64,000 nt of DNA from Verrucomicrobiota bacterium (GTDB lineage: Bacteria; Verrucomicrobiota; Verrucomicrobiia; CAIQCK01): NCBI GenBank assembly GCA_016219905.1, contig JACRKA010000351.1, forward strand, positions 2,622 to 66,621, in the 5' to 3' direction. The notes beneath the pieces are model-generated. The model was not told the DNA's origin. It saw only the letters and a list, made by a program, of their open reading frames with translations, and made no database searches. Positions 21,627 to 58,580 of this stretch are shown here, piece by piece. A program made the position numbers and the translations under genes. Positions within the stretch are counted from its first letter, which is position 1, and every line of letters begins with the position of its first letter.

Positions 21627-21783
21627 AAAATCCGAAATCCGAAACTCGAAATTCGAAACAAATCCGAAACCCGAATTCACCAAAGACGGAAACCGCGCGT
21701 AGCGCCCTGGTCGGCCGTTTCCAAGATTTTCGTCTTTCCTCATTCGAGTTTGTTTCGGATTTCGAGTTTCGACATTCGGATTT
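21627..21783. repeat. Structured intercistronic palindromic repeat, copy 1 (nuoI-nuoJ gap).
   Basis: About 50-nt arms built from CCGAAAT/TCGAAAC heptads (aaatccgaaatccgaaactcgaaattcgaaac ... gtttcggatttcgagtttcgacattcggattt) around a roughly 60-nt loop. It fills the whole 163-bp gap. Confidence 0.85.
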
Positions 21784-23353: not shown

Positions 23354-23507
23354 GCCCGAAATCCGAAACTCGAAATCCGAAATAAATCCGAAATCCGAAG
23401 GCGGCAACGGCCAGACCGGCACCAACCGCTCTGGCGTGGACGTTTCGAGATTCGTTGTCTTCGTCATTCGAGTTTGTTTCGACTTTCGAGTTTCGACTTT
23501 CGGATTT
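23354..23507. repeat. Structured intercistronic palindromic repeat, copy 2 (nuoG-nuoH gap).
   Basis: Same architecture and heptad composition as copy 1 (cccgaaatccgaaactcgaaatccgaaataaatccgaaatccgaa ... cattcgagtttgtttcgactttcgagtttcgactttcggattt). It fills the 161-bp gap. Confidence 0.85.
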
Positions 23508-25149
23508 ACCCCAACTGCACGCCGCCGTCGCCGATCTTCTCCAGCGACAGGCCGGCAAACGGCTTCACGTTGGCCGCCATGTCCGCGAACAACGCCACGA
23601 TGTCCGCAAACCGGTCTGGTTGACCGGTCTCGCGCAACAGGTCGCGAAAGATTTCCCAATCGCTGCGCTCTTCGCCGCCGAGCGACACGGCCGGCCAGAC
23701 ACGCTGGACGCGCCCCTTGGCATTGGTGAACGTGCCGCGTTTCTCGGCGTAAGTCACGCCCGGCAGCACGAAATGCGCGGCCTTCGTCGTCTCCGTCGGC
23801 CTGAAATCCACGACCAGCAGCAGCGACAGCTTCGCCAACAGATCGGCGCCGATGCCGCGCCGGGTCACATCCTCCTGATGGACGACGAGCGTCTTGATCT
23901 TGCCAGCCTTGATGCCGTCGGCGATCGCCGCGAACTTCGACCCCATCGGCGCGGCTGCCACGTTGAAAATCTTCGCGCCGGCGCTGTTCGGGTTGCGGTC
24001 GGCGTTGACGAGGAAGCTGTCACCGTCCCACGTCCGCGGCACGCAATCGCTGACGCTGCCTTTCGCCAGCATCGAGAACAGGTAAAGCTCCTCGTTGGTC
24101 GCCCGCGCGCTGCCGACGAACGCCACGCTCGTGCGGTCGGCCAGCGCGGCCTTCAGCTTCGGCGCGAGTTGCTTCAGCGCATCGGCGTAGCTCGTCTCCT
24201 TGCCGCTGACGAACGCCTTCTTCAGCCGGCTCGCTGCGTTGATGTGTTTGTAGTTGTGACGGCCTGCGTCGCACATCCAGCATTCGTTGACGGCGTCGTT
24301 TTCGCGCGGCGTCTGGCGATAGACGACGTTCTCGCGCGACCAGATGACGATGTTGCAGCCCGTGGCGCAGCTCGTGCAGATGCTCTTGGTCTCCTTCAGG
24401 AACCAGACGCGCATCTTGAACCGGAAATCCTTGTCGGTGAGCGCGCCGACCGGGCAGAGGTCCACGGTGTTGAGGGAGTAATTGCCGGCGAGCTTCTTGC
24501 CAGGCCAGCAGGTCAACGTCGTGTGGCTGCCCCGGTTGGTGAAGCCGAGACAGTCGTCCTTTGCCACATCGCGCATGAACCGGATGCAGCGGCTGCACAG
24601 GATGCACCGCTCGTCGTCGAGCATCACGCGCAGGCCGAGGTCCACCTGTTTCGGCTTGTGAACCTTCTCCTCGCGGAACCGGGACGCGTCCTTGCCGAAC
24701 TCGACGGAATATTCCTGCAGCTTGCACTCGCCAGCCTGGTCGCAGATCGGGCAGTCGAGCGGATGGTTGATGAGGAAGAACTCCATCACCGAGTTCTGCG
24801 CCTGTTGCACAGCGGGCGAGTTGGTGACGACGACCATGCCCTCGGTGACCTGCGTGTTGCAGCCGATGGACAGGCGAGGCGCCATCGTGACCTTCGTCGT
24901 GCCGTCGGGGTTGAGGACAGGCTTGCCGTCGGGGCCGCGCATCGGGCCGCCCACCTCGACGAGGCACATGCGGCAGTTGCCGGAGATGGCGAGCTTCTTG
25001 TGATAGCAATAGTGCGGCACGAACACCCCGACCCTCTGGCCCGCTTCGATGAGGTTGGTGCCCTTCGGCACCTGCACCTTGATGCCGTTGATGGTCGCGT
25101 TGACCATCTCGGCGGCTGGCGTTGGAGTTGTCGGGTTGTCCGCCATCAT
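23506..25149 (-). CDS. nuoG: NADH-quinone oxidoreductase subunit G (75 kDa Fe-S subunit, short form).
   Basis: N-terminal 2Fe-2S and His-ligated 4Fe-4S motifs (CYHKKLAISGNCRMC; HPLDCPICDQAGEC). 547 aa. Confidence 0.92.
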   Translation of the reverse strand: MMADNPTTPTPAAEMVNATINGIKVQVPKGTNLIEAGQRVGVFVPHYCYHKKLAISGNCRMCLVEVGGPMRGPDGKPVLNPDGTTKVTMAPRLSIGCNTQVTEGMVVVTNSPAVQQAQNSVMEFFLINHPLDCPICDQAGECKLQEYSVEFGKDASRFREEKVHKPKQVDLGLRVMLDDERCILCSRCIRFMRDVAKDDCLGFTNRGSHTTLTCWPGKKLAGNYSLNTVDLCPVGALTDKDFRFKMRVWFLKETKSICTSCATGCNIVIWSRENVVYRQTPRENDAVNECWMCDAGRHNYKHINAASRLKKAFVSGKETSYADALKQLAPKLKAALADRTSVAFVGSARATNEELYLFSMLAKGSVSDCVPRTWDGDSFLVNADRNPNSAGAKIFNVAAAPMGSKFAAIADGIKAGKIKTLVVHQEDVTRRGIGADLLAKLSLLLVVDFRPTETTKAAHFVLPGVTYAEKRGTFTNAKGRVQRVWPAVSLGGEERSDWEIFRDLLRETGQPDRFADIVALFADMAANVKPFAGLSLEKIGDGGVQLG

Positions 25150-32160: not shown

Positions 32161-33066
32161 CTACTGTGACCCGAACAAACTTACGCCCGCCGGGCTGCGC
32201 CCGCCGCTGGTGTCCACGATCACCTTCCGCGCTTGTGCCAGGCATTGCTCCAGCGTCTCCAGATAAAGCCGGTGCCGCGTCGCCTCCGGCGCGTCCTTGT
32301 ATTTCGCGAACACCTCCCGCACCCGCTGCGCCGCGCCGCTGGCCAGCTCGACCTTCTCCTGCTTGTAGGCCTCCGCGAGCCGCTCCGCGCGATACGCCTC
32401 GCCCTGCGCCCTCGGGATCAAGTCGTTGGCATAACCCTGCGCCTCCTCCACCAGCCGGAAACGGTCGGCCTTCGCGCTGACCACATCGTTGAACGCAGCC
32501 GCCACCTCCGGCGGCGGATACACGCGCTGGATGTTTGCCGAGTTGATGCTGATGCCGCAGCGATACGCATCGGCCAGCTTCGCCAGCCGCTCCTGCACAC
32601 GCTGCTGGATCTCCACGCGCTTCTCGTAGAGCACCTCCTCCACCGGCATCCGCGCCACCACCTCCGTCAGCGCGTTCTTCGCCGCCGCCTTCAGCAAATC
32701 CTCCGGCGCGACGCTGCCGAACAGATAATCATGCGCCGAGGCGATGTTGTATTGCACCACCAGCTCGATGTTCACGATGTTCTTGTCGCCGCTGAGTAAT
32801 TCCACCTCTGCCGGCAACGGCGCCCAGCCCGTCACCTGCCCCGCCAATGCCACGCCCAGCCCCAGCCGTTTCGTCTCGCGCACCTTCAACGGCACCACCA
32901 CATCGCACGGCCACGGCAGCTTCACATGGATGCCGGGCGGCACGCGGTCATCCACGATCCGGCCGAACCGCCCCAGCACGCCCTGCTCGTCGGTCTTGAT
33001 CATATAGACCGACGTGGCCAGCCAGCCGATGACGGCCAGCGCGAATATCCAGCGAACTATTCTCAC
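32161..33066 (-). CDS. SPFH/band-7 domain protein (HflK/HflC family).
   Basis: N-terminal TM anchor followed by an SPFH domain and a coiled-coil tail. Overlaps the upstream SPFH gene by 4 nt. Confidence 0.8.
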   Translation of the reverse strand: MRIVRWIFALAVIGWLATSVYMIKTDEQGVLGRFGRIVDDRVPPGIHVKLPWPCDVVVPLKVRETKRLGLGVALAGQVTGWAPLPAEVELLSGDKNIVNIELVVQYNIASAHDYLFGSVAPEDLLKAAAKNALTEVVARMPVEEVLYEKRVEIQQRVQERLAKLADAYRCGISINSANIQRVYPPPEVAAAFNDVVSAKADRFRLVEEAQGYANDLIPRAQGEAYRAERLAEAYKQEKVELASGAAQRVREVFAKYKDAPEATRHRLYLETLEQCLAQARKVIVDTSGGRSPAGVSLFGSQ

Positions 33067-33953
33067 TTGTTTGCCTTCAACGCCTGCGATCCTTCCGTCA
33101 GCAGCTTCAGGAAATCACTGTCGCTGCCCAGCACCAGCGTCGTGTTCTCCTTCAGCGTCACCCGATACGCATCCAGCGTCCGCAGAAACTTGTAGAACGA
33201 CGGGTCCAGCGCGATGGCCGAGTTGTAAATCTCGATCGCCCTCGCGTCGCCCTCGCCCTTGAGCGTCTCGGCCTTGCGGTTCGCCTCGGCCAGGATCGTC
33301 GTCTTCTGCTTGTCCGCCTCGGCCCGGATCTTCATGCCCTCCTCCTGGCCCTCGGCGCGGAACTGCTTCGCCTCGCGCTGCCGTTCCGCCCGCATCCGCT
33401 CGAACACCGCGTCGCGGTTCTGCGTCGGGAAACCGAGCCGCTTGATCCGCACGTCCACCACCTCGATACCGTAGCGCCCCTTCGCCGTCTCGCTGCACTT
33501 CCCGCGGATCTCCTCCGAAAGCGGGTCGAGCTTCATCTCCTCCGGCTTTATCGAAAGCAACGCCGCCAGCGGCGTCACGCCCAGCTTTGAGCTAAGCTCG
33601 CTCCAGAGCACGTCCCGCAGCCGCATCTCCGCGCCGAGCGGGTCGCGCACCGCCAGCAGGAACTTCTGCGGCTCGGCGATCTTCCACGCCACGAAGCTCT
33701 GCACGACGATGTTCTTCTTGTCCTGCGTCAGGAACTCCGACGGTGTTGCGTCGTAAAGCCGCACGCGCCGGTCGAAGCGCAGCACGCCTTCCCACGGCCA
33801 CTTCAGCCCCAGTCCCGCCGCGTCGAGCGGGCGCACCGGCTTGCCAAACAGCGTCACGATCACGCTCTCGTTCTCGCGCACGGTGAAGAAGCACGTCCAG
33901 ACCGCGGCGACCGCCACGGCCAGCACAAGCAAGGTTTTCGATACAGGTTTCAT
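33063..33953 (-). CDS. SPFH/band-7 domain protein (HflC-like).
   Basis: N-terminal TM anchor, ESVIVTLFGKPV SPFH start, and a coiled-coil C-terminus (ERMRAERQREAKQFRAEGQEEG). Confidence 0.8.
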   Translation of the reverse strand: MKPVSKTLLVLAVAVAAVWTCFFTVRENESVIVTLFGKPVRPLDAAGLGLKWPWEGVLRFDRRVRLYDATPSEFLTQDKKNIVVQSFVAWKIAEPQKFLLAVRDPLGAEMRLRDVLWSELSSKLGVTPLAALLSIKPEEMKLDPLSEEIRGKCSETAKGRYGIEVVDVRIKRLGFPTQNRDAVFERMRAERQREAKQFRAEGQEEGMKIRAEADKQKTTILAEANRKAETLKGEGDARAIEIYNSAIALDPSFYKFLRTLDAYRVTLKENTTLVLGSDSDFLKLLTEGSQALKANK

Positions 33954-33954
33954 G

Positions 33955-36900
33955 TCACTCCTCGGAAATCGTCGGCCGCTGCGCCGTCTGCGCCGGCGCA
34001 GACGGTGCGCTTTGACTCAGCAGCGCCTTCAACCGCTCGTTCAGCAAATAAATCTGGTGCGGCGCCTTTGCGCGGTTGTCCACGACGTAAAGCTGCTGCC
34101 GCGGCAGCAACTCTTCCATCATCTCCAGGTAAAACCGTTCCGCCTGCGCCTCACGCTGTGGGCCGGCCGCCTTGGCCGTCGCTGCGAACCGCGCCGCGCG
34201 GCCATTGCTATCCGCGATTTTCGCGTCCCGTGCCGCCGTCGCCGCCGTCACCGTGTTCGTTGCCGCTCCGCGCGCCAGAGGCACCTGCTCATTGCGGTAG
34301 CCCTCCGCTTCGTTGATGACGCGGCTCTTTTCCTCAATGGCGCTCGCCACGTCGCGATACGCGTCCACCAGCTCGATCGGCGGATGCACGTCCTGCAACC
34401 GCACGGCCTGCACCTCGATCCCTGCCGCGCACGCATCGAGCCGCCGTTGGATGAACTCTCGCACATGCTGCTCGACGAAGGGCCGGCCCGTCGTGAGCAA
34501 TCGCTCCGCTGCCGCGCGTCCCGCCGCCTCGCGCAGCGCCGCCTCGGCCAGCGCCTTCACCAGCGCCGCCGGCTCCGTCGCCGCGAACAGGTAAGCCACC
34601 GGGTCCTTCACCACGAAATGCGTCGTCAGTGTCACCGCCACGAAGTTCTCGTCGCCCGCCACCACCATCGCCTCCTCCGGCACGAACTGGAACCCACCCT
34701 TGTGCTCATAGTTCCATTCGTAGGCCGTCGGTTCAATAAACACATTCGTCTGCGCGGCGGCCGGCTGCGTCCATCGTTTCCAGAACGGCTGCGCCGCGAC
34801 AGCGCGCTCCACCGCGCGCAACCCGACCTGCACACGCTGCACGCGCTCCGGCGTCACGCGGAGCACTTCGTCGCACGGCCACGGCCAGACGTAACTCAGC
34901 CCCGGTTCCAGCACGGCAACCTTTCGGCCAAAATGCAACCGCACGCCGACCTCGTCCGGCTGGATCGCCGTCAAGCCGGTCACAAACCAACTCGCCGTTG
35001 CCGCCACGAGCGCCACGCCCAGCGCTTTCGCCGGTTGGTTGCGACAGAACCCCGCCACCGCATTGCCCTGCCGCCGACATCCCGCCGTCTGCTGCTGCCA
35101 CCACGCCGCGCCGCGCCGCGCCGTCTCGCCGCTCGACAAGAGTCGCAGCGAGTTGCACACCACCAGCAGCGAGGAAATCTGGTGCGTGACCGCCGCGCCG
35201 ATCGGCCCGATCACGCCTTGCGACGCCGCGAACACCGCCGCGCCATTGAAGCCGACGGCGAACCACCAGATGTTGTGCCGGATCGTGCGGATGACCTGCC
35301 GGCAAAACTCGATCGCGAAAGGGATTCTCCTCAAGTCGTCCTGCATCAGCACGACATCAGCCGCCTCGATGGTGATGTCCGTGCCCAACCCGTGCATCGC
35401 CACGCCCGTGTCCGCCGCCGCGAGCGCCGGCGCGTCGTTGATCCCGTCGCCGCACATCAACGTCGCCAGCCCGCGCTGCTGGAGCGCGCGGATGCGCGCG
35501 ACCTTGTCCGCCGGCAGCAAGCCCGCGCCCACCTCGCCGATGCCCACGCGCTCGCCAATGGCGCGCCCGACGCGTTCGTTGTCACCCGTCAGCAGGACAA
35601 TCTGCTCGATGCCACACCCACGCAGCAACGCCACCGTCTCGCGCGCTTCCTCGCGTGGGGGGTCGCTAAGGGCGACCGCGCCGATGACGGTAGCCGCCGA
35701 CGTATGGAGGCGGTCCGCTTTCTTACCAACAGAACTGTTGTCCACCTCCTCACGTCGGTGGCTACCGCGCGCCACCAGCACCACCGTGTGGCCCGCTTCC
35801 TCCAGCCGCTGGATGCGCGCCTCGGCTTCCGCGGAAATCGCCGCGCCCCGCTGCTGCATCAGCTGGCGGTTGCCCACCGCAATGAATGTGGGAGGGGCCT
35901 TAGCGCCCCGACCCGGCGCGTCCCACGCCCCAGGAACGGACTTGGAAGTCCGTTCTACTTCGGAGGCTGTGCTCGAAGTCGTAGAACGGACTTCCAAGTC
36001 CGTTCCATCGTCACGACGAACCTCCGCCACCGTGCCCATGCCCGGCACGGCTTCGAACTTATCCGCCCGCTTCAGCGCAATGCCCCGCCGCTGCGCCTCC
36101 GCCACGATCACCTGCGCCAGCGGATGCTCCGAGTGCGACTCCGCCGTCGCCGCGAGCGCGAGCAACGCGCCCTCATCGCCGCCAAACGCGACCGTCTCGA
36201 CGACGCGCGGTTTGCCGACGGTCAGCGTGCCGGTCTTGTCGAACACAACCGCGCGCGTGTTCGCGAGCTTCTCCAGATAGATGCCGCCCTTGACCAACAC
36301 GCCGGCCCGCGCGAGCCGGCCGATGCCCGCCGCGATGCCCGTCGGCGTCGCCAACACCAGCGCGCACGGACACGCCACGATCAGCACGCTGACGGCCCGG
36401 ATGAGCCGCGCGCTGAAGTCCCCGCCGGAAAAGAAAAACGTCGCAAGGCCCAGCGCGATGACCGTCGGCACGAACCATACCGCCCACTTGTCGGCGCGCT
36501 GATGGACACCCGCCTTTTTCTCCTCCGCCTCCTCGACGAGGTGAATGATCTTGCCGAGCGTGGAATCCTCACCGACGCCAGTGACGCGCACGTCGAGCGA
36601 GCCGACCTGGTTGATGGTGCCTGCGAACACCTTGTCTCCGCCGGCCTTGTTCACCGGGATGCTCTCGCCAGTGATCGCGCTCTGGTCCACCGCCGATGCG
36701 CCCGCGACGACCTCGCCGTCCACCGCAATGCGCTCGCCCGGCCGAACCATAACCACGTCGCCAGCACGGATGTTGTCCAGCGCCACCTCGACGATGTCGC
36801 CGCCGCGCCGGACGCTGGCGGTGCGCGGCACCAGCTTGATGAGCTTCTCGATCGCGCCGCGCGTGCGGTCCACGGCGAGTTCTTCGAGATAGCCGCCGAC

Positions 36901-37176
36901 CAGCATGATAAAGATGACCTCGGCGGCGGCGAAATACTGGCCGATGTAGAGCGCGGCGCACGCGGCGATGGCGATGGCCAAGTCGCTGGAAATCTCGCGG
37001 TGGAGCAGCCCCCATGCGGCCTCGCCGAAGATCTTGTAGCCACCGATCAGCGTGATCAGCACCGCCACATCAAACGGCCCGACATCCTTGATCCAGCCAA
37101 ACCAGTAAAGCGCCAGCAGCCCGCCGACGGCGGCGATGAACAGTGGCTTGCACAGTTTCTTGAGCGACGCTGGCAT
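33955..37176 (-). CDS. Heavy-metal-translocating P1B-type ATPase (CPC type) fused at its C-terminus to an HflK-like SPFH domain. It carries in-frame palindromic insertions.
   Basis: P-type motifs: TGES, CPCAL (metal-binding TM6), DKTGTLT, GDGINDAPAL. The P-type portion ends at NSLRLL. After that the frame continues into a TM segment plus an HflK-like SPFH domain (VRLHFGRKVAVLEPGLSYVWPWP...) of about 370 aa. Total 1073 aa. Confidence 0.8.
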   Translation of the reverse strand: MPASLKKLCKPLFIAAVGGLLALYWFGWIKDVGPFDVAVLITLIGGYKIFGEAAWGLLHREISSDLAIAIAACAALYIGQYFAAAEVIFIMLVGGYLEELAVDRTRGAIEKLIKLVPRTASVRRGGDIVEVALDNIRAGDVVMVRPGERIAVDGEVVAGASAVDQSAITGESIPVNKAGGDKVFAGTINQVGSLDVRVTGVGEDSTLGKIIHLVEEAEEKKAGVHQRADKWAVWFVPTVIALGLATFFFSGGDFSARLIRAVSVLIVACPCALVLATPTGIAAGIGRLARAGVLVKGGIYLEKLANTRAVVFDKTGTLTVGKPRVVETVAFGGDEGALLALAATAESHSEHPLAQVIVAEAQRRGIALKRADKFEAVPGMGTVAEVRRDDGTDLEVRSTTSSTASEVERTSKSVPGAWDAPGRGAKAPPTFIAVGNRQLMQQRGAAISAEAEARIQRLEEAGHTVVLVARGSHRREEVDNSSVGKKADRLHTSAATVIGAVALSDPPREEARETVALLRGCGIEQIVLLTGDNERVGRAIGERVGIGEVGAGLLPADKVARIRALQQRGLATLMCGDGINDAPALAAADTGVAMHGLGTDITIEAADVVLMQDDLRRIPFAIEFCRQVIRTIRHNIWWFAVGFNGAAVFAASQGVIGPIGAAVTHQISSLLVVCNSLRLLSSGETARRGAAWWQQQTAGCRRQGNAVAGFCRNQPAKALGVALVAATASWFVTGLTAIQPDEVGVRLHFGRKVAVLEPGLSYVWPWPCDEVLRVTPERVQRVQVGLRAVERAVAAQPFWKRWTQPAAAQTNVFIEPTAYEWNYEHKGGFQFVPEEAMVVAGDENFVAVTLTTHFVVKDPVAYLFAATEPAALVKALAEAALREAAGRAAAERLLTTGRPFVEQHVREFIQRRLDACAAGIEVQAVRLQDVHPPIELVDAYRDVASAIEEKSRVINEAEGYRNEQVPLARGAATNTVTAATAARDAKIADSNGRAARFAATAKAAGPQREAQAERFYLEMMEELLPRQQLYVVDNRAKAPHQIYLLNERLKALLSQSAPSAPAQTAQRPTISEE
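35689..35766. repeat. In-frame palindromic element (family A) inside the P-type ATPase gene.
   Basis: 78 nt (26 codons). Arms ggtagccgccgacgtatggaggcgg / ccacctcctcacgtcggtggctacc. Encodes SHRREEVDNSSVGKKADRLHTSAATV, placed by eye into the HTVVLVARG...IGAVAL loop of the ATPase; P1B-ATPases are not expected to carry such a segment there. Confidence 0.75.
35893..36007. repeat. In-frame palindromic element (family B) inside the P-type ATPase gene.
   Basis: About 115 nt. It contains two mutually reverse-complementary 22-nt near-palindromes (gaacggacttggaagtccgttc / gaacggacttccaagtccgttc) flanking tacttcgg..cgaagtcgta. Encodes TDLEVRSTTSSTASEVERTSKSVPGAWDAPGRGAKAPP, sitting between VRRDDG and TFIAVGN, which I equate from memory with the VDGRTVLVGN region of other CopA-type pumps. 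Confidence 0.7.
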
Positions 37177-37289
37177 AGTGGACGTGGAGCGCAGTCTATA
37201 TCAGAACGCGGCCCCCGCTGCAAAGTTTCATCCCGCCTTTCCCTGCACGGCGGTTTGACATCGGCGGGGCAGTTCCTATACTCGCGGCC

Positions 37290-38261
37290 ATGAAGATCTT
37301 CGTCGTGGGCGGGGCTGGCTACATCGGCAGCATCTGTGTGGAAGAGGTGCTCAACGCCGGCCATCAGGTCACCGTGTTCGACAATCTCTCCGAAGGCCAC
37401 CGCAGCGCGGTGGACCCGCGCGCGGCGTTCGTGCAGGGCGATCTCGCCAATTACGCCGAGATCAGCGCCGCGCTGAAGGCCGCCGTGCCGGAGGCGGTGA
37501 TGCACTTCGCTGCGGCGTCGGTGGTGCCGGAGAGCATGGTCAACCCGTCGAAATATTTTCACAACAACGTCGCCAACGCCATCCACCTGCTCGACGCCAT
37601 CGTCGAGCACGGCATCAAGAAGTTCGTCTTCAGCGGCACCTGTGCCATCTTCGGCACTCCGGAACGCGTGCCGATGACCGAGGACCTGCCGGTTCGGCCC
37701 CTGTCGCCCTACGGTCAAAGCAAGGCAATGGTCGAGCAGATGCTGCGCTGGTATGACCAGATTCACGGCGTCCAATACGTGAGCCTCCGCTACTTCAACG
37801 CCGCCGGCGCGAGTGAGAAGTTCGGCGAACATCATCGCCGCGAGACGCATCTCATCCCCAACGTGCTGGCCGTCGCGCTCGGCACGAAAGACCACGTCGA
37901 GATCTACGGCACCGACTACCTCACGCCCGACGGCACGTGTGTCCGCGACTACATCCACATCATTGATCTCGCCCAGGCCCACATCCTCGCCCTCCAATGC
38001 CGCCAGAGCGCCTGCTTCAACCTCGGCTGCGGCGACGGCTACACGGTGAAGCAGGTCATTGACACCTGCCGCAAGGTCACCGGCCACCCCATCCACGCCA
38101 TCGAACGTCCGCGCCGGCCCGGCGATCCGCCGAAGCTGGTCGCTTCCTCGAAGAAGATTTCCTCCGAACTGGGATGGAAGCCGCGCTTCAACAAGCTCCA
38201 AGACATCGTCGCCAGCGCATGGGCGTGGCACAAGACGCACCTCAACGGGTATCCGGACTAG
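37290..38261 (+). CDS. galE: UDP-glucose 4-epimerase.
   Basis: N-terminal GGAGYIGS Rossmann motif, YxxxK (YGQSKAM) catalytic pair, 323 aa. Confidence 0.9.
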   Translation: MKIFVVGGAGYIGSICVEEVLNAGHQVTVFDNLSEGHRSAVDPRAAFVQGDLANYAEISAALKAAVPEAVMHFAAASVVPESMVNPSKYFHNNVANAIHLLDAIVEHGIKKFVFSGTCAIFGTPERVPMTEDLPVRPLSPYGQSKAMVEQMLRWYDQIHGVQYVSLRYFNAAGASEKFGEHHRRETHLIPNVLAVALGTKDHVEIYGTDYLTPDGTCVRDYIHIIDLAQAHILALQCRQSACFNLGCGDGYTVKQVIDTCRKVTGHPIHAIERPRRPGDPPKLVASSKKISSELGWKPRFNKLQDIVASAWAWHKTHLNGYPD

Positions 38262-38265
38262 CGGC

Positions 38266-38364
38266 GTTGGAGTGATGGAGTATGGGAGTGTTGGGGGGAT
38301 GGGGAGATAGAACTTTCCGCTTCAACAATCCACTACTCCACAACTCCAATACCCCATCACTCCA
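38266..38364. repeat. GGAGT-rich palindromic intergenic element (family E), copy 1, between the convergent galE and exported-protein genes.
   Basis: ttggagtgatggagtatgggagtgttgggg ... ccacaactccaataccccatcactccatc forms a long imperfect hairpin that abuts both stop codons. Confidence 0.75.
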
Positions 38365-40800
38365 TCATTCGAGCTTCGGCCCCTCGATCCGCTCGCCGCG
38401 CTGCTGGCGGGCCTGGTCGGCGACATCGAACGTGCCGTAGAACAGCGCGTTCGCATCCATCCACGTCACCAGCCGCTCCATATCCTCCGCGGTGAGCGCC
38501 ACGTCGTGGTGACCTTTCATCAGCATCTTCATCAACGGGCTGCCGCGCGCGCCGAAAAAGTCCGGCTGCGACATCGGCTCGCTGTTCACGACGCGGAAGT
38601 CGCCCGGCTTGCCACCCCACGCCGAGAACGACACGCGTCCGGCCAGCGCGTTGTAGGAGGCGCTGTAGCGGCCTTGCGGTTCGCCCGTCAGCGCAAGCTT
38701 GCCCTCCGGCTGCGGCCCGCTGTGGCAGGAGACGCAATGTTTGTTGAGCACGGGCTGGACGAGGATGGGATAACTCAACGGCTTCGAGCCGTCGGGGCCG
38801 GGCGCAATCGTCGAAGGCGGCCGTGACATGGCGATGGCGACGCGGCGTGAAGATGGAGTGTTGGCACGGTGCTCGTGGCAGCCGACACAAGAAACGCGCT
38901 CGCCCGGCTGGAGATAGGTGACGCTGCGCATCGTTTGCACCGCCTGGCCGCGCTCGTCGAGCGCCTGGAACGCGAGCGCGATATTGGCCGGCGCGCGGAA
39001 ATACGCCGAGCCATCCGCCTCGACAGGCACCGTGCCGAGCACTTGCTTGCCGGGCGAGGCATTCGCAACACCAACCGTCGGCGCGTTGATGTGCGGTGTC
39101 GTCTTGGGCAGCACCTGGATGACGCGCAGACGCGTGATGCGAGCATCCGGCAGCCGCGGCCATGAATCGTGAACATTTTCAACAAAGAAGGTGCCGTCGC
39201 GCGATGCGGCATCCTTGATGCGCGATTCGGATTCTTGTGCAAGCAACGGCAACGCCGGCGGCGTCGGACGCGCCCGCAGCGGCATCGGCCAGAGGCTGCA
39301 GATTTCCGAGTCGCGATAAAGCAGTTCCTTGTTGCCGAACGCATCCACGAGGTAGAGGCCGAACATGTTCGCCGGATTGGCGCTCGGCTCGCCGATCAGC
39401 GGGTCGAAACTGTAGGCGGCCAGAAAATACTTCTCCGACAACGGCCACGGCGTGCGATAGCAGTGGCCCGGCCACCGCGCCGCCTCCGGCGGAACAACTG
39501 GCGGGTTCTTCGGGCTGCCCGGCGCGCGCCAGAACGCCGGTTTCGCCGTGCCGTGCGACACGGGCTCCTCGCTCTCGGGAAACAGCGCGTCCGGCGTCAG
39601 CCGCGTGATTGGTTCCAGACCGTCCACCCCGCGCGTCACATCAAGCAGAATGATCGAGCCGGCGGTCATCGCATGGTGCGCCGCAGCGGTGGCCATCACG
39701 CGGCTCGACGCCGGCACGGCGCGGGCTTCCCACACGCCGACCGGGTTCAACGTGTTGTTGCCGTAGAACGCACGCACATCCGTGCCGTCCGGCCGCACCG
39801 TCCAGAGTTGCTGGTAATGCACTGCGTTGCGGTCCACGTAATCCCAACGCGTGTAGATGACACGGCCATCGTTGAGGACCGACGGGTCCCATTCGTGCGT
39901 CTCGTGAAACGAGACCGGATGCGGGTCGGAGCCGTCGCCGTTCGCGACAGCCAGCGTGTAGGTCGCGCACGGCCCGCGCCCGCAGCGATGGAACCCGCCG
40001 CGCCGCGTCGAGATGAAAACAATGCGGCCATCGGGCAAACAGCGTGACGCAAAATCGTCGAACGGCCCGTCTGTGAGCTGGCGCAGCCGCGAACCGTCTG
40101 CCGCCATCTCGTAGAGATGGTAATACCGGTCCAGACACGCCTCGCGATCCTTCGGCGCGGTCGGGGCGTTACAGTAGGCGAACAGGATGCGTTTGCCGTC
40201 GTAGGACACCTCCGGGAACTGGAAACTGCCGGGCGGCAGCGCATCCGGCGCAAGCTGGCGGCACCGCATCGTCCTGCCCGGCTCGTCGAGCGCGAACACC
40301 CCGCCGCCCGGCCGCGCGCAACTGCCGTAGTATTGCGTGAGCTGGTGGCTGAACATGCTCGGCACCTGCTTCACGAAAACCAGCGGCCCCGTTTTCGCGA
40401 GCGGATTGGCAAACACGATCTCGCGCCGCAACTCATGCGCCCGCCGCCAGAGGCTTTCCAAAGCAGGAGAATCCGCCATCGTAGGCGCCGACGTAAGGAG
40501 GCGAACGTCATGTGTTGAGCCGGAACGTTTCGCCTCCTCACGTCGGCGCCTACCGAACTCCCCGCGCAGCTTCTCCCATTGCCGCTGCAAATCTCCCAAC
40601 TCCACGCCCGCCGCCCCCAGATCGCTAATCAGCGCATCACCACGCTTGAAGAGCTTGGCGACCGCGTCCACGTAGGTGCCGGGATTACGCGCCGTGCCGA
40701 TGCCATCCTGTTTGCGCCAGTCGGCTTCAATCATCGCGCGCTCGTCCGCCCCAAGCACGCTCGTGACTGCCATGAAGAATGACAATGCAAATCGCCGCAT
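38365..40800 (-). CDS. Exported protein with a TolB-like beta-propeller region and two C-terminal CxxCH (putative c-type haem) motifs. It carries an in-frame palindromic insertion.
   Basis: Signal peptide MRRFALSFFMAVTSVLGA. Repeated DG.(R/I).F.S propeller-like units. CVGCHEH and CVSCHSG motifs near the C-terminus. Confidence 0.65.
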   Translation of the reverse strand: MRRFALSFFMAVTSVLGADERAMIEADWRKQDGIGTARNPGTYVDAVAKLFKRGDALISDLGAAGVELGDLQRQWEKLRGEFGRRRREEAKRSGSTHDVRLLTSAPTMADSPALESLWRRAHELRREIVFANPLAKTGPLVFVKQVPSMFSHQLTQYYGSCARPGGGVFALDEPGRTMRCRQLAPDALPPGSFQFPEVSYDGKRILFAYCNAPTAPKDREACLDRYYHLYEMAADGSRLRQLTDGPFDDFASRCLPDGRIVFISTRRGGFHRCGRGPCATYTLAVANGDGSDPHPVSFHETHEWDPSVLNDGRVIYTRWDYVDRNAVHYQQLWTVRPDGTDVRAFYGNNTLNPVGVWEARAVPASSRVMATAAAHHAMTAGSIILLDVTRGVDGLEPITRLTPDALFPESEEPVSHGTAKPAFWRAPGSPKNPPVVPPEAARWPGHCYRTPWPLSEKYFLAAYSFDPLIGEPSANPANMFGLYLVDAFGNKELLYRDSEICSLWPMPLRARPTPPALPLLAQESESRIKDAASRDGTFFVENVHDSWPRLPDARITRLRVIQVLPKTTPHINAPTVGVANASPGKQVLGTVPVEADGSAYFRAPANIALAFQALDERGQAVQTMRSVTYLQPGERVSCVGCHEHRANTPSSRRVAIAMSRPPSTIAPGPDGSKPLSYPILVQPVLNKHCVSCHSGPQPEGKLALTGEPQGRYSASYNALAGRVSFSAWGGKPGDFRVVNSEPMSQPDFFGARGSPLMKMLMKGHHDVALTAEDMERLVTWMDANALFYGTFDVADQARQQRGERIEGPKLE
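40481..40553. repeat. In-frame palindromic element (family A), copy 2, inside the exported-protein gene.
   Basis: Arms gtaggcgccgacgtaaggaggcgaacg / cgtttcgcctcctcacgtcggcgcctac share the core CCGACGT..GGAGGCG / CGCCTCCTCACGTCGG with the copy in the ATPase. Encodes about RRRREEAKRSGSTHDVRLLTSAPT. Confidence 0.75.
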
Positions 40801-40848
40801 GACGCCCCGGATACTACCCTGCCGCTCCCCAGATGTTGAGCTTTCTCT

Positions 40849-42966
40849 TCATTCCTCCCACAGTCCGCGGATTTTGCCGCGGGCGTCCGTTTCCTGAGCA
40901 ACCGATTCCGCGCCGCCGGCATCCACTTTTGGCAACTTCAACGTCACTTGCTCGAACTTCGCCCGCACGTCGGTTGGGATGAAGCGGGTCAGTTGCGCGA
41001 ATGTGTGGCGGTCGCCCATCTCGTGCTTCGTGGCGTAGTAGCGCAGCGGGAAACAGACGTAGAGCCAGTTGCGCGCGCGGGTCAACGCAACGTAAAGCAG
41101 CCGCCGCTCCTCTTCGATCTCGTCCGCGTCGCCGGTGCTCAGGTCGCTGGGGATGATGCCGTCGGTGGCGTGGATGAGGAAGACCACGTCCCACTCGCAA
41201 CCTTTCGCCGAGTGGATCGTGCTCAGCGTCATCCAGTCGTCGTCCTTGCGCGGCGGGCCAGCCCAATCGCCGGTCGCGCCCGGCGGGTCGAGCGTCAGCT
41301 CGGAGAGGAACTGCTCGCGGGACTCGAAGCCCGCCGCGATGACGCCCAACTGCTCCAAGTCGCGCACGCGGACCTCGGCGTGGTCATAGACCTCGTGGAA
41401 GATCGGGTCGTAGAATTGTCGGATGCGCTCAATCTGCGTGCCCAAACTGATGATGGTGGGGCGAGGCTCTGCCGAGCCTTCGCCACTGTCTTCATGGGCA
41501 TGGCTCGGCGGAGCCTCGCCCCACCCCTTTGGCGACAGCTTAATCTCACCCAAATCGCGCAGCAGGCCGCACAATGCGATGAACCGCTCCCGCGCCGCAG
41601 GCGGCACGGGACAGTGCGACAGCGCGCGCAGGTCATGGCCGTTGGCGGCAAGGAAGCGCCAGATGCGCTTCGCGCCAGCCGGGCCGACACCCTCCAGCAG
41701 GTGGAGGACGCGGAACCAGCTCATCTCGTCGCGCGGGTTCTCCAGGATGCGCAGCAGGGCGAGCAAGTCCTTCACGTGGGCGGCTTCGAGGAACTTCAGG
41801 CCGCCGAATTTCACGAACGGGATGTTGCGCCGCGTCAACTCCACCTCCAACGCGTCGCTCCAGTGGGCGGTGCGCACGAGCACAGCCATCCGGCGCAACG
41901 GCACGCCGGCCTCGTAGTGCTCGAGGATTTTCTTGCAGACGAACCGCGACTGCTGCGCCTCGTCGAGGCAGTTGACCAGCATCGGCCGCTGTTCGCTGCG
42001 GCGGTCGCTCCAGAGGTCCTTGGTGAACCGCTCCGGCGCGCGGGCGATGACGGCGTTGGTGGCGGCGAGGATCGGCTGCACGCTGCGGTAGTTCTGCTCG
42101 AGCGTGATGATGGCCGCGCCGGGGAACTGTTTCGGGAAATCGAGGATGTTGCGGACCGTCGCGGCGCGGAAGCTGTAGATGCTCTGCGCGTCGTCGCCGA
42201 CGACGCTGAGGTTGCGGTGCGGCCCAGCCATCTTCAGCAAGATGTCAGCTTGCAGCCTGTTCGTGTCTTGGTATTCGTCCACGAGGATGTGGCTAAAGCG
42301 GGCGGCGACGCGCGGACCGGCCTCGGCCGTGTCCATCAGGTGCCGCCAGACCAGCAGCAGGTCGTCGTAGTCGAGCACGTGCCGGTCGTGCTTGCGGTCG
42401 GTGTAGGCCGCGAACAGTTGCTTCAATTCCGCCTCATGCTCCGCGCACCACGGGAAATGGCGCTTGAGCACACGACCGAGCGGCTGCCGGGCGTTGGCGC
42501 AGCGTGAGTAGATGTCGAGCAGCGTGCCTTTCTTCGGGAACCGCTTCTCCTTCGAGTGCAAGCCGAGGTCATGACGGACGAGGTTGAGCAGGTCCTCGGC
42601 GTCGGATTGGTCGAGCACGGTGAAATCGGGCGCGAGGCCGACGGCGCGGCCGTGGATGCGGAGGAGACGGTTGGCGATGGCGTGGAAGGTGCCGCCCCAG
42701 ACGCGTGAAACGTGAAACGTGAAACGTGAAACGTGACAGGAATGTTCGGCGCGGCGGATCATCTCGTGGGCCGCGCGGCGGGTGAAGGTGAGCAGGAGGA
42801 TGCGCCCGGCTGGCACGCCGCGCTGGAGCAGGCAGGCGACACGGGCGGCGAGGGTCTTGGTCTTGCCGGTGCCCGCGCCGGCGATGATCAGGAGCGGGCC
42901 GTCGCCATGCGTGGCCGCGGCGCGCTGCTGCGGGTTGAGTTCATCCAGCCAGGCAGAGTCGGGCAT
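40849..42966 (-). CDS. UvrD/PcrA/Rep family ATP-dependent DNA helicase.
   Basis: Motif I GAGTGKT, Ia LLLTFTRRAA, II VDEYQDTN, GTFH, and downstream motifs. 705 aa. Confidence 0.9.
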   Translation of the reverse strand: MPDSAWLDELNPQQRAAATHGDGPLLIIAGAGTGKTKTLAARVACLLQRGVPAGRILLLTFTRRAAHEMIRRAEHSCHVSRFTFHVSRVWGGTFHAIANRLLRIHGRAVGLAPDFTVLDQSDAEDLLNLVRHDLGLHSKEKRFPKKGTLLDIYSRCANARQPLGRVLKRHFPWCAEHEAELKQLFAAYTDRKHDRHVLDYDDLLLVWRHLMDTAEAGPRVAARFSHILVDEYQDTNRLQADILLKMAGPHRNLSVVGDDAQSIYSFRAATVRNILDFPKQFPGAAIITLEQNYRSVQPILAATNAVIARAPERFTKDLWSDRRSEQRPMLVNCLDEAQQSRFVCKKILEHYEAGVPLRRMAVLVRTAHWSDALEVELTRRNIPFVKFGGLKFLEAAHVKDLLALLRILENPRDEMSWFRVLHLLEGVGPAGAKRIWRFLAANGHDLRALSHCPVPPAARERFIALCGLLRDLGEIKLSPKGWGEAPPSHAHEDSGEGSAEPRPTIISLGTQIERIRQFYDPIFHEVYDHAEVRVRDLEQLGVIAAGFESREQFLSELTLDPPGATGDWAGPPRKDDDWMTLSTIHSAKGCEWDVVFLIHATDGIIPSDLSTGDADEIEEERRLLYVALTRARNWLYVCFPLRYYATKHEMGDRHTFAQLTRFIPTDVRAKFEQVTLKLPKVDAGGAESVAQETDARGKIRGLWEE
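42703..42735. repeat. Tandem GTGAAAC heptad repeat (4.5 units) embedded in-frame in the helicase gene.
   Basis: cgtgaaacgtgaaacgtgaaacgtgaaacgtga. Translated on the minus strand as HVSRFTFHVSRV between helicase motifs Ia and GTFH. Confidence 0.8.
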
Positions 42967-42975
42967 GGCGCGCGT

Positions 42976-43368
42976 TCAGGGCCGGCCGCGGACGATGACG
43001 ACATCGTGGGGCCAGCACCAATACCAGTGCGGGCCGAAGGCATACCAGTCGTAGTAACGGCGCGAATACTCGCGCTCCTGCCAGCGGACGGCTTCGAGGT
43101 AGTCCTGGAGCATGAAGTCAATGACGCCGTTATTGACGCCGCTGTCGTGGAGGTGGAGGATTTCGGCGGCCGTGAGCCGATAGACCGTGCCGGAGGCGCG
43201 GATCTTCTGGATGATGTCGGTGTCGAGCGCGCCCGACTTCGCCATCTGGATGATCTCTTCCTGCGTCAGCGGCTTTGGCGGCGGGCCTTTGGGGCCAGTG
43301 CTCGCGCAGCCCGCAACCGCAAGCGCAAGTGCACCAGCGAGAATCAGACTGCTTGTCTTCACAGCCAA
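42976..43368 (-). CDS. Hypothetical lipoprotein.
   Basis: Signal peptide with lipobox LAVAGC. 130 aa, Trp/Tyr-rich C-terminus. Confidence 0.6.
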   Translation of the reverse strand: MAVKTSSLILAGALALAVAGCASTGPKGPPPKPLTQEEIIQMAKSGALDTDIIQKIRASGTVYRLTAAEILHLHDSGVNNGVIDFMLQDYLEAVRWQEREYSRRYYDWYAFGPHWYWCWPHDVVIVRGRP

Positions 43369-43416
43369 TTGATAGTCCTGCCGCCGCGCCGGCGCAAGCC
43401 CGCGCGCGGCCCGCGC

Positions 43417-45234
43417 TCACTGTTCCGCCGGCTGGGACGGCGACTTGCGGGAAAGCTCGAGCAACTTGTCCAGCGGGACGACCACCTCGGCCGTCGCGGC
43501 GGCTCGCGTGAGGGTGAAGAAGCCGGCGATGTCGGCCTGCAAACGGTCCAGCAGTTCGTAGAGCCGTCCACCCTCGGCAGCCACTGCCGATGGCATCGCG
43601 CCGGTCGCGATCTTGAAGTAGTCCTCGACCTGCATGAAGAAGACGCCGTTGAGCCGTTTGGGGAAGCCGGCGACGGCGGCGTCGAAGCGCGGCCGCGCGA
43701 TCGGCGTGGCGGGCGGCTTCTTCGCGAGGCCAATCAACTGCCGGATGTTCTCCGCTGCGCGCGGGCCGGTGGCTCCGAGGCCGAACTGTCCCGCGAACGC
43801 GGTGCGCGAGACGAGGTTCGTGCCGAAAGGATTCCGGGAGGCGCCTTGCGAGGCGGGTGACCCGCTCCCGGCGAGGTCGAAGGTCATCTGGTCAATCTCA
43901 ACGCCCGCGTGGCGCGCGACGTTGGGCTGGAATTTCGTCCGACCGGATTCGGCCTCGGACAAGAACCCGCTGAGCGCCTGGACTCCGGCGGTGGCGGCCT
44001 TGCGCTGCGCCGCCCGCGCGCGGGCTGCGTCCTTGACGCGATAGGCTTGGATCATGTCGAAGCCGGTCTGTCCGGCAGGCTGGGACTTCAATGCCACACC
44101 CGCTGCGCCGGCGCGAACCTCCATGTTCTCGCGCATGATGTCCGCCAGAGAGGCCGACGCGGTGGCGGTGTTTGTCGGCGCGGCGGCTTGCAGGATCGGC
44201 TGCAGGTATTGCGTGCAAAACTCAATCGTCTCCGGTGTCTGCGCCGTCTGCCAGCAGCCCAGCATGGCCGCGTCCGCGGGCATCAACGACATCACGCCGG
44301 CATCGAGCGCCGCGGGCGATTGCGCGGCGAGAACTCCCGCAAGCGGCGTCTTCGCCAGGGGACGCAGGCCGAGGCGCACCTTGAGCTGCCCCTCGATCAG
44401 TTCAGCCCCGACTTCAAGCGACTCGATCTGTTTCGTCACGGACAACAGGCTGTCCATGGCCGCGGCATGGATCCTGCCGCGCCTGACAGCCACCTCGCCG
44501 CCTGTCGGGCTGCCAGAGCGCGTAACAGCGGCTTGCTGTCGGAGTTCCTTCTCGTAGATGCCCAAGAGCGCCGGCACGTTACAGGCCGCGGTGATGTCGC
44601 CTGCAACGGCGCGCGTCAAACGAAGCCCGCCCCCTTTCCCCGGCTCCAACAAGCCGCGGTCGCCGACGATCAACCCCTCGTTCCCGCGCACGGTGACGAA
44701 GTAGTGTCGGGTGACCTGTTTCTTGAACTTCGCCGGGTCAGCCTGTTCGCCGGCCTGCAACGCCGCCATGAAACCGCGCCGGTCAAATTCCTCGACCGGC
44801 TCGGTGAAGTGCCGCACCGCCGCGCCGGCCGTCGCCGGGTCCGCCTCGACGCGATTGACGCCGCCTTTTCCGAAGCTGTCGCAGAACAACGCCGCGTCGC
44901 TCACACCTATAATAATGGCAAGGTCATTGGTGAACTTCGCCGGGTTGAGGAACACCACGGTGCAGGGGCGCTGGAGGTCCACGCCGGCCAGCATCGGGTT
45001 CTTCATGAACCGCTGCGCCACCAACGGCAGGAGATCGCCGACGCGGCCGCCGAGCTTGCGGGTGATGCCGTCCATTTTGCCGAGCGCGACTTCGGGCCGC
45101 TCGATGCGCAGGTAGCCGAGACCCTCGGCGCCGGCGCGGGCCAGGACGGATTCGGCTGAGGGGTCGGCTGCGGCTGAAGCCAGCGAGAGGACGGCCGCGG
45201 CCAGCAGGCTCGCGAGGCGAGCGAATGTTTTCAT
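43417..45234 (-). CDS. Secreted hypothetical protein (605 aa).
   Basis: Cleavable signal peptide MKTFARLASLLAAAVLSLASAAA. Long ORF with codon-usage-consistent composition; no recognisable motif. Confidence 0.65.
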   Translation of the reverse strand: MKTFARLASLLAAAVLSLASAAADPSAESVLARAGAEGLGYLRIERPEVALGKMDGITRKLGGRVGDLLPLVAQRFMKNPMLAGVDLQRPCTVVFLNPAKFTNDLAIIIGVSDAALFCDSFGKGGVNRVEADPATAGAAVRHFTEPVEEFDRRGFMAALQAGEQADPAKFKKQVTRHYFVTVRGNEGLIVGDRGLLEPGKGGGLRLTRAVAGDITAACNVPALLGIYEKELRQQAAVTRSGSPTGGEVAVRRGRIHAAAMDSLLSVTKQIESLEVGAELIEGQLKVRLGLRPLAKTPLAGVLAAQSPAALDAGVMSLMPADAAMLGCWQTAQTPETIEFCTQYLQPILQAAAPTNTATASASLADIMRENMEVRAGAAGVALKSQPAGQTGFDMIQAYRVKDAARARAAQRKAATAGVQALSGFLSEAESGRTKFQPNVARHAGVEIDQMTFDLAGSGSPASQGASRNPFGTNLVSRTAFAGQFGLGATGPRAAENIRQLIGLAKKPPATPIARPRFDAAVAGFPKRLNGVFFMQVEDYFKIATGAMPSAVAAEGGRLYELLDRLQADIAGFFTLTRAAATAEVVVPLDKLLELSRKSPSQPAEQ

Positions 45235-58494: not shown

Positions 58495-58498
58495 AAGA

Positions 58499-58580
58499 TT
58501 GGAGTGGTGGGGTGATGGAGTATTGGAGTGTTGGGTTGTCTGTGGAAGTTACCCATTACTCCAATACTCCAACACTCCAT
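58499..58580. repeat. GGAGT-rich palindromic intergenic element (family E), copy 2, between the glucan phosphorylase stop and the ADH start.
   Basis: ttggagtggtggggtgatggagtattggagtgttggg ... cccattactccaatactccaacactccat: the same GGAGT(A/G)TTGG-unit hairpin as at 38266-38364. Its right arm overlaps the TAA stop. Confidence 0.75.

Follow-up and report, generated by a model that had tools for sequence, protein, structure and literature searches.

The 64,000-nucleotide stretch of Verrucomicrobiota DNA analysed here (hereafter the window; contig JACRKA010000351.1) contains, at 40481-40553, a 73-nt palindromic element within the gene of an 811-residue protein. The element is very probably a doublet of two GTAG-type repetitive extragenic palindromes (REPs), similar to a REPIN (REP doublet forming hairpins), which was spread by a cognate REP-associated tyrosine transposase (RAYT) of the HUH/Y1 type and is tolerated in frame at this place. 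A first-pass annotation of the window had correctly recognised the palindrome but had missed its identity as a GTAG-type REP doublet with a cognate RAYT. The repeat family to which the element belongs is called family A.

The element is an inverted doublet with GTAG at both outer ends, an arrangement known as an HH dimer. A repeat finder placed the two arms at 40481-40505 and 40529-40553, each 25 nt long and 96% complementary to the other, with 23 nt between them. REP arm 1 (GTAGGCGCCGACGTAAGGAGGCGAA, 40481-40505, plus strand) consists of the GTAG head and a 4-bp small stem (CGCC/GGCG), which closes the loop GACGTAAGGA containing a Shine-Dalgarno (SD)-like AAGGAGG. REP arm 2 (40529-40553) is on the minus strand, where it reads GTAGGCGCCGACGTGAGGAGGCGAA; its plus-strand reading is TTCGCCTCCTCACGTCGGCGCCTAC. 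The sole difference of arm 2 from arm 1 is at position 15 (G vs A), resulting in a G.U pair on the host sense strand and an A.C mismatch on the other. The spacer cgtcatgtgttgagccggaacgt (40506-40528), which forms the loop of the long hairpin and is unconserved in the family, contains a chance ATGTGTTGA (40510-40518, plus strand). The extent of 73 nt given by the first-pass annotation was exact, but its arms of 27 nt and loop of 18 nt have to be replaced by 25-nt arms and a 23-nt spacer. On folding, the long stem gains three or four further pairs past a 1-nt bulge.

The RNA fold of the element showed -58.9 kcal/mol for the minus strand (z -7.7) and -53.4 kcal/mol for the plus strand (z -7.5), and the DNA folds showed -33.1 and -31.4 kcal/mol (z -9.2 and -8.0). 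None of 200 shuffled sequences folded as well as the element in any of the RNA and DNA runs. Pairing of the arms, which had been left to a proper fold calculation, was thereby confirmed (z -7.5 to about -9). The expected number of occurrences of the arm pattern in shuffles of the window was 0.00. The same doublet architecture was found in 146 distinct doublets from other Verrucomicrobiota.

The single arm is also a structured unit. Its 25-nt consensus is GTAGCCGCCGACGTGAGGAGGCGGA, with the conserved loop GACGTGAGGA. The GTAG head is retained in more than 97% of 367 arms (G 361, T 357, A 357 and G 364), and both arms at 40481-40553 begin with it. The minimum-energy DNA fold of a single arm has a 5-bp stem formed by positions 5-9 with 20-24, and this stem showed clear covariation: 90% of the cells were paired, and 42 cells with double changes were observed as compared with 12.4 in shuffles, values reached in 0 of 1000 shuffles. 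Within the loop, position 12 pairs with position 17, as C-G in 126 arms and as G-C in 19, and closes a GTGA, GTAA or GTCA tetraloop. This 12-17 pair of the GYRA tetraloop adjoins the tandem G.A pairs G10-A19 and A11-G18. The differences between the two arms of one doublet cluster at loop positions 12, 15 and 17. The small hairpin is therefore itself the conserved unit, and not the long one alone. In the sister family GTAGGAGACGACGTGAGGAGTCTC, head and loop are those of family A and every one of the five stem pairs is swapped; this full exchange gives independent support for the arm hairpin.

In order to take a census of the family, one genome per species was scanned for GTAGSCRCCGACGTNNGGAGG. 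At least 120 stretches matched, and the 80 loci listed came from about 50 assemblies, nearly all of them Verrucomicrobiota, with several contigs belonging to one metagenome-assembled genome (MAG). Among the matches listed, copies were present on up to 6 separate contigs per related MAG, and 266 arms differed from the consensus by 5 mismatches or fewer, forming 103 GTAG-outside inverted doublets as against 60 singlets. The modal length is 70-71 nt for the doublet and 20-21 nt for the spacer. The spacers are unrelated to each other: only 30 of 807 equal-length pairs were at least 70% identical. The element had been described as the second copy of a dispersed family rather than a local duplication; this description holds, given the other window copy at 35690-35765 and the copies across Verrucomicrobiota assemblies. 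Two denser arrangements were also seen. The locus L024 has a tandem cluster of family-A units with a period of about 99 nt (1550-1900), and the locus L110 has two family-A doublets (3462-3532 and 5515-5608) in one open frame of 1573 aa.

The host gene of the element (38365-40800, minus strand) encodes an HzsA-related/PD40 beta-propeller protein of 811 aa, with Pfam matches to HZS_alpha (2.8e-24) and PD40 and a hydrophobic, signal-like segment at the N-terminus. An NCBI protein from a 68-kb contig of a Verrucomicrobia MAG has the identical sequence, and homologues number in the thousands. The exported protein assumed in the first-pass annotation is a real gene product and is probably secreted. 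The reading frame was likewise correctly reported to pass through the element about 80 codons from the N-terminus of the ORF (open reading frame): residues 83-107 (GRRRREEAKRSGSTHDVRLLTSAPT) come from the element, which neither contains a stop codon nor shifts the frame. Alignment to 23 orthologues showed conservation of residues 20-82, with the EADWRKQDGIGT motif among them, and of the sequence from ESLWRRAHELRR onward, the stretch in between being variable in length. With both sides conserved, the N-terminal part upstream of the element is coding and the element lies inside the coding region.

An indel at this site was revealed by the comparison of orthologues that the first-pass annotation had proposed. 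In the protein alignment, P0010 and P0014, the closest orthologues without the insert, do not have the segment, and in the DNA alignment to the P0010 gene the net difference is exactly 75 nt, or 25 codons. The orthologue P0003 carries a different GTAG doublet, GTAGCGGCGGTCTCTGACCGCCG, in the same linker (1302-1374 of the locus L202), with an 8-bp stem and a 3-nt loop. Its insert, CTGTAGCGGCGGTCTCTGACCGCCG ... CGGCGGTCGGAGACCGCCGCTACAG, has the same geometry of 25+23+25 nt as the element at 40481-40553 and is made of another REP sequence. With different inserts at the same place in other close orthologues, the linker is a permissive site, which was hit independently and repeatedly. Palindrome-like inserts at this linker were also noticed in the orthologues P0002, P0005, P0009 and P0011. 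AlphaFold2 modelling of the host protein with a 24-sequence alignment gave a poor model (mean predicted local distance difference test score, pLDDT, 56.7), the only usable observation being a dip of confidence at residues 91-110 between confident helices at 70-93 and 112-129. The element is a 25-residue in-frame insert tolerated in a variable linker, and the insert is presumably neutral for the function of the protein.

Residence inside genes is frequent in family A. Among 101 distinct doublets (genome scan plus window), 48 are spanned by an open frame of 200 aa or more, 28 of these with the coding pattern of G+C content at third codon positions. REPs are expected to be extragenic, and this expectation failed here, since both window copies and 28-48% of the doublets are intragenic. 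Intragenic GTAG REPs, however, are a documented exception in Verrucomicrobia (PMC3733652), and the assignment of family A to REPs therefore stands. Hosts identified by Pfam include IleRS, ValRS, LeuRS, UvrA, a NuoF-like subunit, an SDR protein, an FtsX permease and BatA. In IleRS, the whole doublet corresponds to 22 extra residues as compared with 8C9E, and in UvrA to 26 extra residues as compared with 3PIH. Since the whole doublet is extra in both proteins, the spacer arrives together with the arms. We also considered that the spacer might be host sequence captured between two independently inserted REPs; this was ruled out, because the spacer too is extra in IleRS, UvrA and the host protein of the window. 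The forward arm is open in two of the three frames, because TAG and TGA share one frame, and the reverse arm is open in all three. This openness explains the recurrent peptides, which start with VAADVRRR or SRRREEA and end with LLTSAAT, PPPHVGGY or SSRRRL.

The association with a transposase was found in related genomes and metagenomes. A tblastn search with E. coli RayT, used only as a lead, pointed to the loci L062 and L119. The L062 ORF has about 24% identity to E. coli RayT, and its protein aligns to TnpA-REP (PDB ID: 4ER8) over 136 residues (E 7e-9), with the HUH motif and the Tyr region included. The protein of the L062 clade is a divergent relative. Family-A doublets are located on both sides of this gene. 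A metagenome scan with the L062 protein gave 80 loci. In about 33 of them, the encoded RAYT is at least about 64% identical, and nearly all of these are bordered on either side by family-A arms no more than about 250 nt away; arms on both sides were seen in about 30 loci. In 45 loci the protein is more distant; family-A arms are missing there, and the sister REP GTAGGAGACGACGTGAGGAGTCTC forms the flanks instead. The sister RAYT clade comprises L154-L200 (55-62% identical, flanked by GTAGGAGACGACGTGAGGAGTCTC). This is a clade-specific pairing of REP and RAYT, of the kind that defines such systems, as read from the sequences of related genomes and metagenomes. A separate RAYT at 851-1961 of L119 scores above the NCBIfam cut-off (94.5 bits; Pfam Y1_Tnp 4e-8) and is flanked on both sides by a further repeat with the translation ...FLSAGSGDFPV...NTELESSV.PQAGKPALR.

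On the basis of these observations, the following route can be proposed for the element. Two inverted 25-nt GTAG-headed palindromes surround a spacer of about 20 nt, and a single arm folds into the GTAG head, a 5-bp G+C stem and the GACGTGAGGA loop. GTAG and the hairpin would together form the single-stranded-DNA substrate of the cognate HUH/Y1 RAYT, as in E. coli TnpA-REP and the IS200/IS605 family. The RAYT would cut and rejoin the DNA without target duplication, by which the family could be spread or maintained in the lineage. The copy at 40481-40553, together with its spacer (net +75 nt, 25 codons), landed in the length-variable linker between the two N-terminal helices. Since the insert preserves the frame, with the arm open in two of the three entry frames, it survived as a tolerated 25-residue insertion. 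Mobilisation of the doublets by the RAYT, its catalysis and its current activity would follow the examples of TnpA-REP (PMC3479197, PMC8266576) and of REPINs (PMC3116915), and the source genome would be expected to carry a RAYT.

Several facts weigh against this interpretation. No transposition event was observed. There is no RAYT gene within the 64-kb window, and the cognate enzyme was seen only in related genomes. The score of the L062 ORF against NCBIfam REP_Tyr_transpos (NF047646; E 1.3e-17, 64.1 bits) is under the curated cut-off of 80, and the L062 protein has no match to Pfam Y1_Tnp. The arms at 40481-40553 carry the minority variant G5 and A24, so that their small stem is reduced to 4 bp. 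The spacers are unrelated even between copies of one MAG, unlike the prediction of simple replication in which recent copies are copied as a unit. Finally, the GTAG-to-CTAC lengths of in-frame copies fall into all three classes modulo 3, which leaves the ends of the mobilised unit undefined.

It is also conceivable, though unlikely, that the family is more than tolerated junk and that the hairpin is actively maintained inside coding regions, either by the RAYT, which might rewrite or repair the arms time and again, or by selection on a role of the mRNA such as ribosome pausing, RNase processing or mRNA stabilisation. Under both possibilities the element would be domesticated and would act inside genes instead of between them. 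Such maintenance would fit the arms, which are near-invariant over about 50 species around unrelated spacers even within one genome, the in-frame location of as many as half of the doublets within essential genes, and the mismatches between the arms. In the 28 intragenic doublets (L001-L120 plus window), the inter-arm mismatches on the sense strand were G.U in 17 cases and A.C in 6. This excess of G.U is suggestive of a constraint at the RNA level, in a small sample of 23 positions.

A classical miniature inverted-repeat transposable element (MITE) would be a deletion derivative of a DDE insertion sequence, with the arms as terminal inverted repeats and with cut-and-paste movement accompanied by target duplication. 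The size of about 70 nt, the terminal inverted repeats and the dispersed copies agree with such an element, and both window copies happen to have CG at either flank. A 2-bp CG target-site duplication, for which the lengths 73+2 and 76+2 would both be multiples of 3, failed the family-wide flank test: identical 2-nt flanks were found in 7 of 146 doublets, with 5.3 expected, and identical 3-nt flanks in 1 of 146. It was also contradicted by the in-frame copies, which show no constant length class modulo 3. As there is no family-wide target-site duplication, the CG flanks of the two window copies are meaningless. Moreover, the interior is unconserved, arms often occur singly and form a covarying hairpin of their own, and the associated gene, with arms on both sides, encodes an HUH/Y1 RAYT rather than a DDE transposase. 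It is therefore very unlikely that family A is a MITE.

We consider it just as improbable that the element is a functional RNA or translation element, in which an SD sequence and an ATG drive a mini-ORF, or that it was selected here as a terminator, an attenuator or a processing site. As the first-pass annotation described, AAGGAGG at 40495-40501 on the plus strand is followed after 8 nt by ATG TGT TGA (ATGTGTTGA), which would encode Met-Cys and a stop. The RNA hairpin is very stable on both strands, and the excess of G.U over A.C on the sense strand would also fit a function in RNA, although this bias comes from 23 positions only. The suggestion that these elements can carry ribosome-binding-like sequence is correct in that GGAGG occupies REP positions 17-21 in every arm. 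This GGAGG, however, is paired with CCTCC of the partner arm within the stem. Of 292 oriented copies, 13 have an ATG 4-10 nt downstream of GGAGG, which is about what chance would give, and the spacer of the copy at 35690-35765 has no ATG. The SD-ATG arrangement is thus not conserved across copies. The mini-ORF also runs antisense to the host gene and is a coincidence, as already suspected in the first-pass annotation. As for a terminator, the flanks CGAACTCCCC (plus strand) and GATGGCGGAT (minus strand) have no T-run, and the element lies within a continuous ORF. A scan of 33000-44000 against Rfam 15 gave only microRNA-precursor hairpins at 27-28 bits, against a gathering score of 97, which is generic hairpin noise. 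The copies, furthermore, occupy unrelated positions in unrelated genes. An ancestral Arg/Glu-rich linker whose DNA is palindromic by chance, or an artefact of MAG assembly, is hardly credible: the linker is indeed variable in all orthologues and the first arm is modelled as continuing the helix 70-93, but the same 25-nt arms occur at hundreds of unrelated sites in independent assemblies, the nearest orthologues have either no segment or other REP doublets, and the palindromy is far above chance.

The window contains one more family-A doublet, 4.7 kb from the element. It is 76 nt long (35690-35765), with the arms GTAGCCGCCGACGTATGGAGGCGG and GTAGCCACCGACGTGAGGAGGTGG and a DNA fold of -20.9 kcal/mol (z -5.2). 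Its host gene (33955-37176, minus strand) encodes, in a single frame according to Pfam, a P1B-type ATPase of 1073 aa, in which a heavy-metal-type P-type ATPase (E1-E2_ATPase and HAD) is fused to a C-terminal Band 7/SPFH domain. The doublet supplies about residues 471-496, which belong to the nucleotide-binding region. A perfect 26-nt inverted repeat of another REP, GTAGAACGGACTTCCAAGTCCGTTCC, is present in frame in the same gene at 35933-36006 (about residues 391-415), with GTAG inward (TT dimer) and a 22-nt spacer. In the alignment to CopB (3SKY), 112 query residues stand opposite 44 chain residues where both palindromes lie, and the two palindromes account for most of the approximately 68 extra residues.

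At 41455-41525 there is a doublet of a third kind, headed by GTGG (GGTGGGGCGAGGCTCTGCCGAGCC...), with 31-nt arms that are 87% complementary. It lies inside the neighbouring ORF of a UvrD-like helicase (40849-42966, minus strand) at about residues 481-504. Pfam UvrD_C is split into two stretches in this ORF, and in the PDB alignment of the UvrD region the palindrome falls in the unaligned 2B region. Related units, GTAGGGCGAGGCTCC..., are found in other loci such as L029 and L085. The window thus has at least three kinds of REP doublet within three neighbouring genes. Inverted repeats of TGGAGTR-like short repeats, for example TGGAGTGATGGAGTATGGGAGTGTTGG, were noticed at 38268-38364 and 58498-58589. 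The former immediately follows the stop codon of the host gene and lies between that gene and the next. These repeats may form an extragenic hairpin family of their own. Heptamer-like repeats (AAATCCG / AAACTCG) form long inverted arrays at 21628-21783 and 23356-23508. Hybrid doublets of other MAGs (L001, L069 and L059), in which a family-A arm pairs with a GTAGGAGCCGAGGTAACGAGGCTC arm, have spacers filled with these same TTCGGAT-type repeats.

For annotation, the present analysis explains a low-complexity insert of 25 residues in the host protein, as well as the many 'VAADVRRR...LLTSAAT' and 'SRRREEA...PPPHVGGY' segments, and likewise the spurious small ORFs, of Verrucomicrobiota MAGs. It also provides a well-defined pair of REP and RAYT, with an arm consensus, a structured loop (GYRA tetraloop and tandem G.A) and a sister clade with a fully compensated stem. 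The copies, which are unusually often intragenic, are a convenient natural data set for the target choice of HUH enzymes and for the tolerance of proteins to random insertions of 20-30 residues.

Family A was finally compared with known systems. Bacterial MITEs such as Correia/NEMIS, ERIC and RUP are similarly small and non-coding, with inverted-repeat ends and RNA hairpins, and are occasionally in frame. MITEs, however, have target-site duplications, conserved interiors and an origin from DDE insertion sequences, and none of these traits is found in family A. The E. coli REPs and bacterial interspersed mosaic elements (BIMEs) with TnpA-REP (4ER8; PMC3479197, PMC8266576) would share the logic of the substrate, namely a single-stranded-DNA hairpin with a conserved tetranucleotide on its 5' side. 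They differ in sequence and hairpin architecture and are essentially extragenic, and the identity of the RAYTs is low, as given above. The Rickettsia palindromic elements (RPEs, summarised in PMC3733652) resemble family A as in-frame palindromes in functional, often housekeeping genes, where they are tolerated as an extra peptide. RPEs belong to another phylum, RPE-1 is described in the same paper as a longer palindromic insertion, and motif comparison alone indicated no sequence relationship.

Family A also resembles the REPIN-RAYT systems of Pseudomonas and Enterobacteria. REPINs (defined in Bertels and Rainey 2011, PMC3116915, and PMC3337134) likewise consist of two inverted REPs, each of about 25 nt, around a spacer of lower conservation, with a total length of about 70 nt. 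In both cases doublets outnumber singlets, the RAYT gene is flanked by its own REPs, and different RAYT clades have different REPs. REPINs, however, are described as extragenic, whereas 28-48% of family-A doublets are in frame inside genes. Also unlike the REPIN-RAYT systems, family A has one arm sequence common to about 50 species-level genomes.

Family A closely fits the description of the GTAG-tagged REPs, whose HH (GTAG outside) and TT dimers were defined by Di Nocera, De Gregorio and Rocco in 2013 (PMC3733652). In that study RAYT genes were flanked by GTAG REPs, and intragenic copies were most numerous in the verrucomicrobium Opitutus terrae. The intragenic dimers encoded 20-30 residues in hosts such as uvrA, UvrD/Rep helicases and tRNA synthetases, which match the hosts found here (UvrA, tRNA synthetases) and the UvrD gene next to the host gene. 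Family A shares with these REPs the GTAG head with a short stem-loop and the occurrence mostly as inverted dimers 20-100 bp apart, forming one long hairpin. It differs from them in the large (10 nt), internally structured loop on a short (5 bp) stem, and its HH spacers are unrelated, unlike the rule of thumb that HH dimers have conserved spacers. The family-A peptides and the 7-nt arm core CCGACGT were not found in the supplementary text of PMC3733652, to which this comparison was confined. Family A may be one of the families GTAG-17 to GTAG-20 of that paper. We therefore treat family A as a further family of the intragenic GTAG REP dimers already described in 2013, and it opens no new category of element. 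The present findings go somewhat beyond that description in two respects, namely the unrelated spacers in HH dimers and the conservation of the arm over about 50 species-level genomes.

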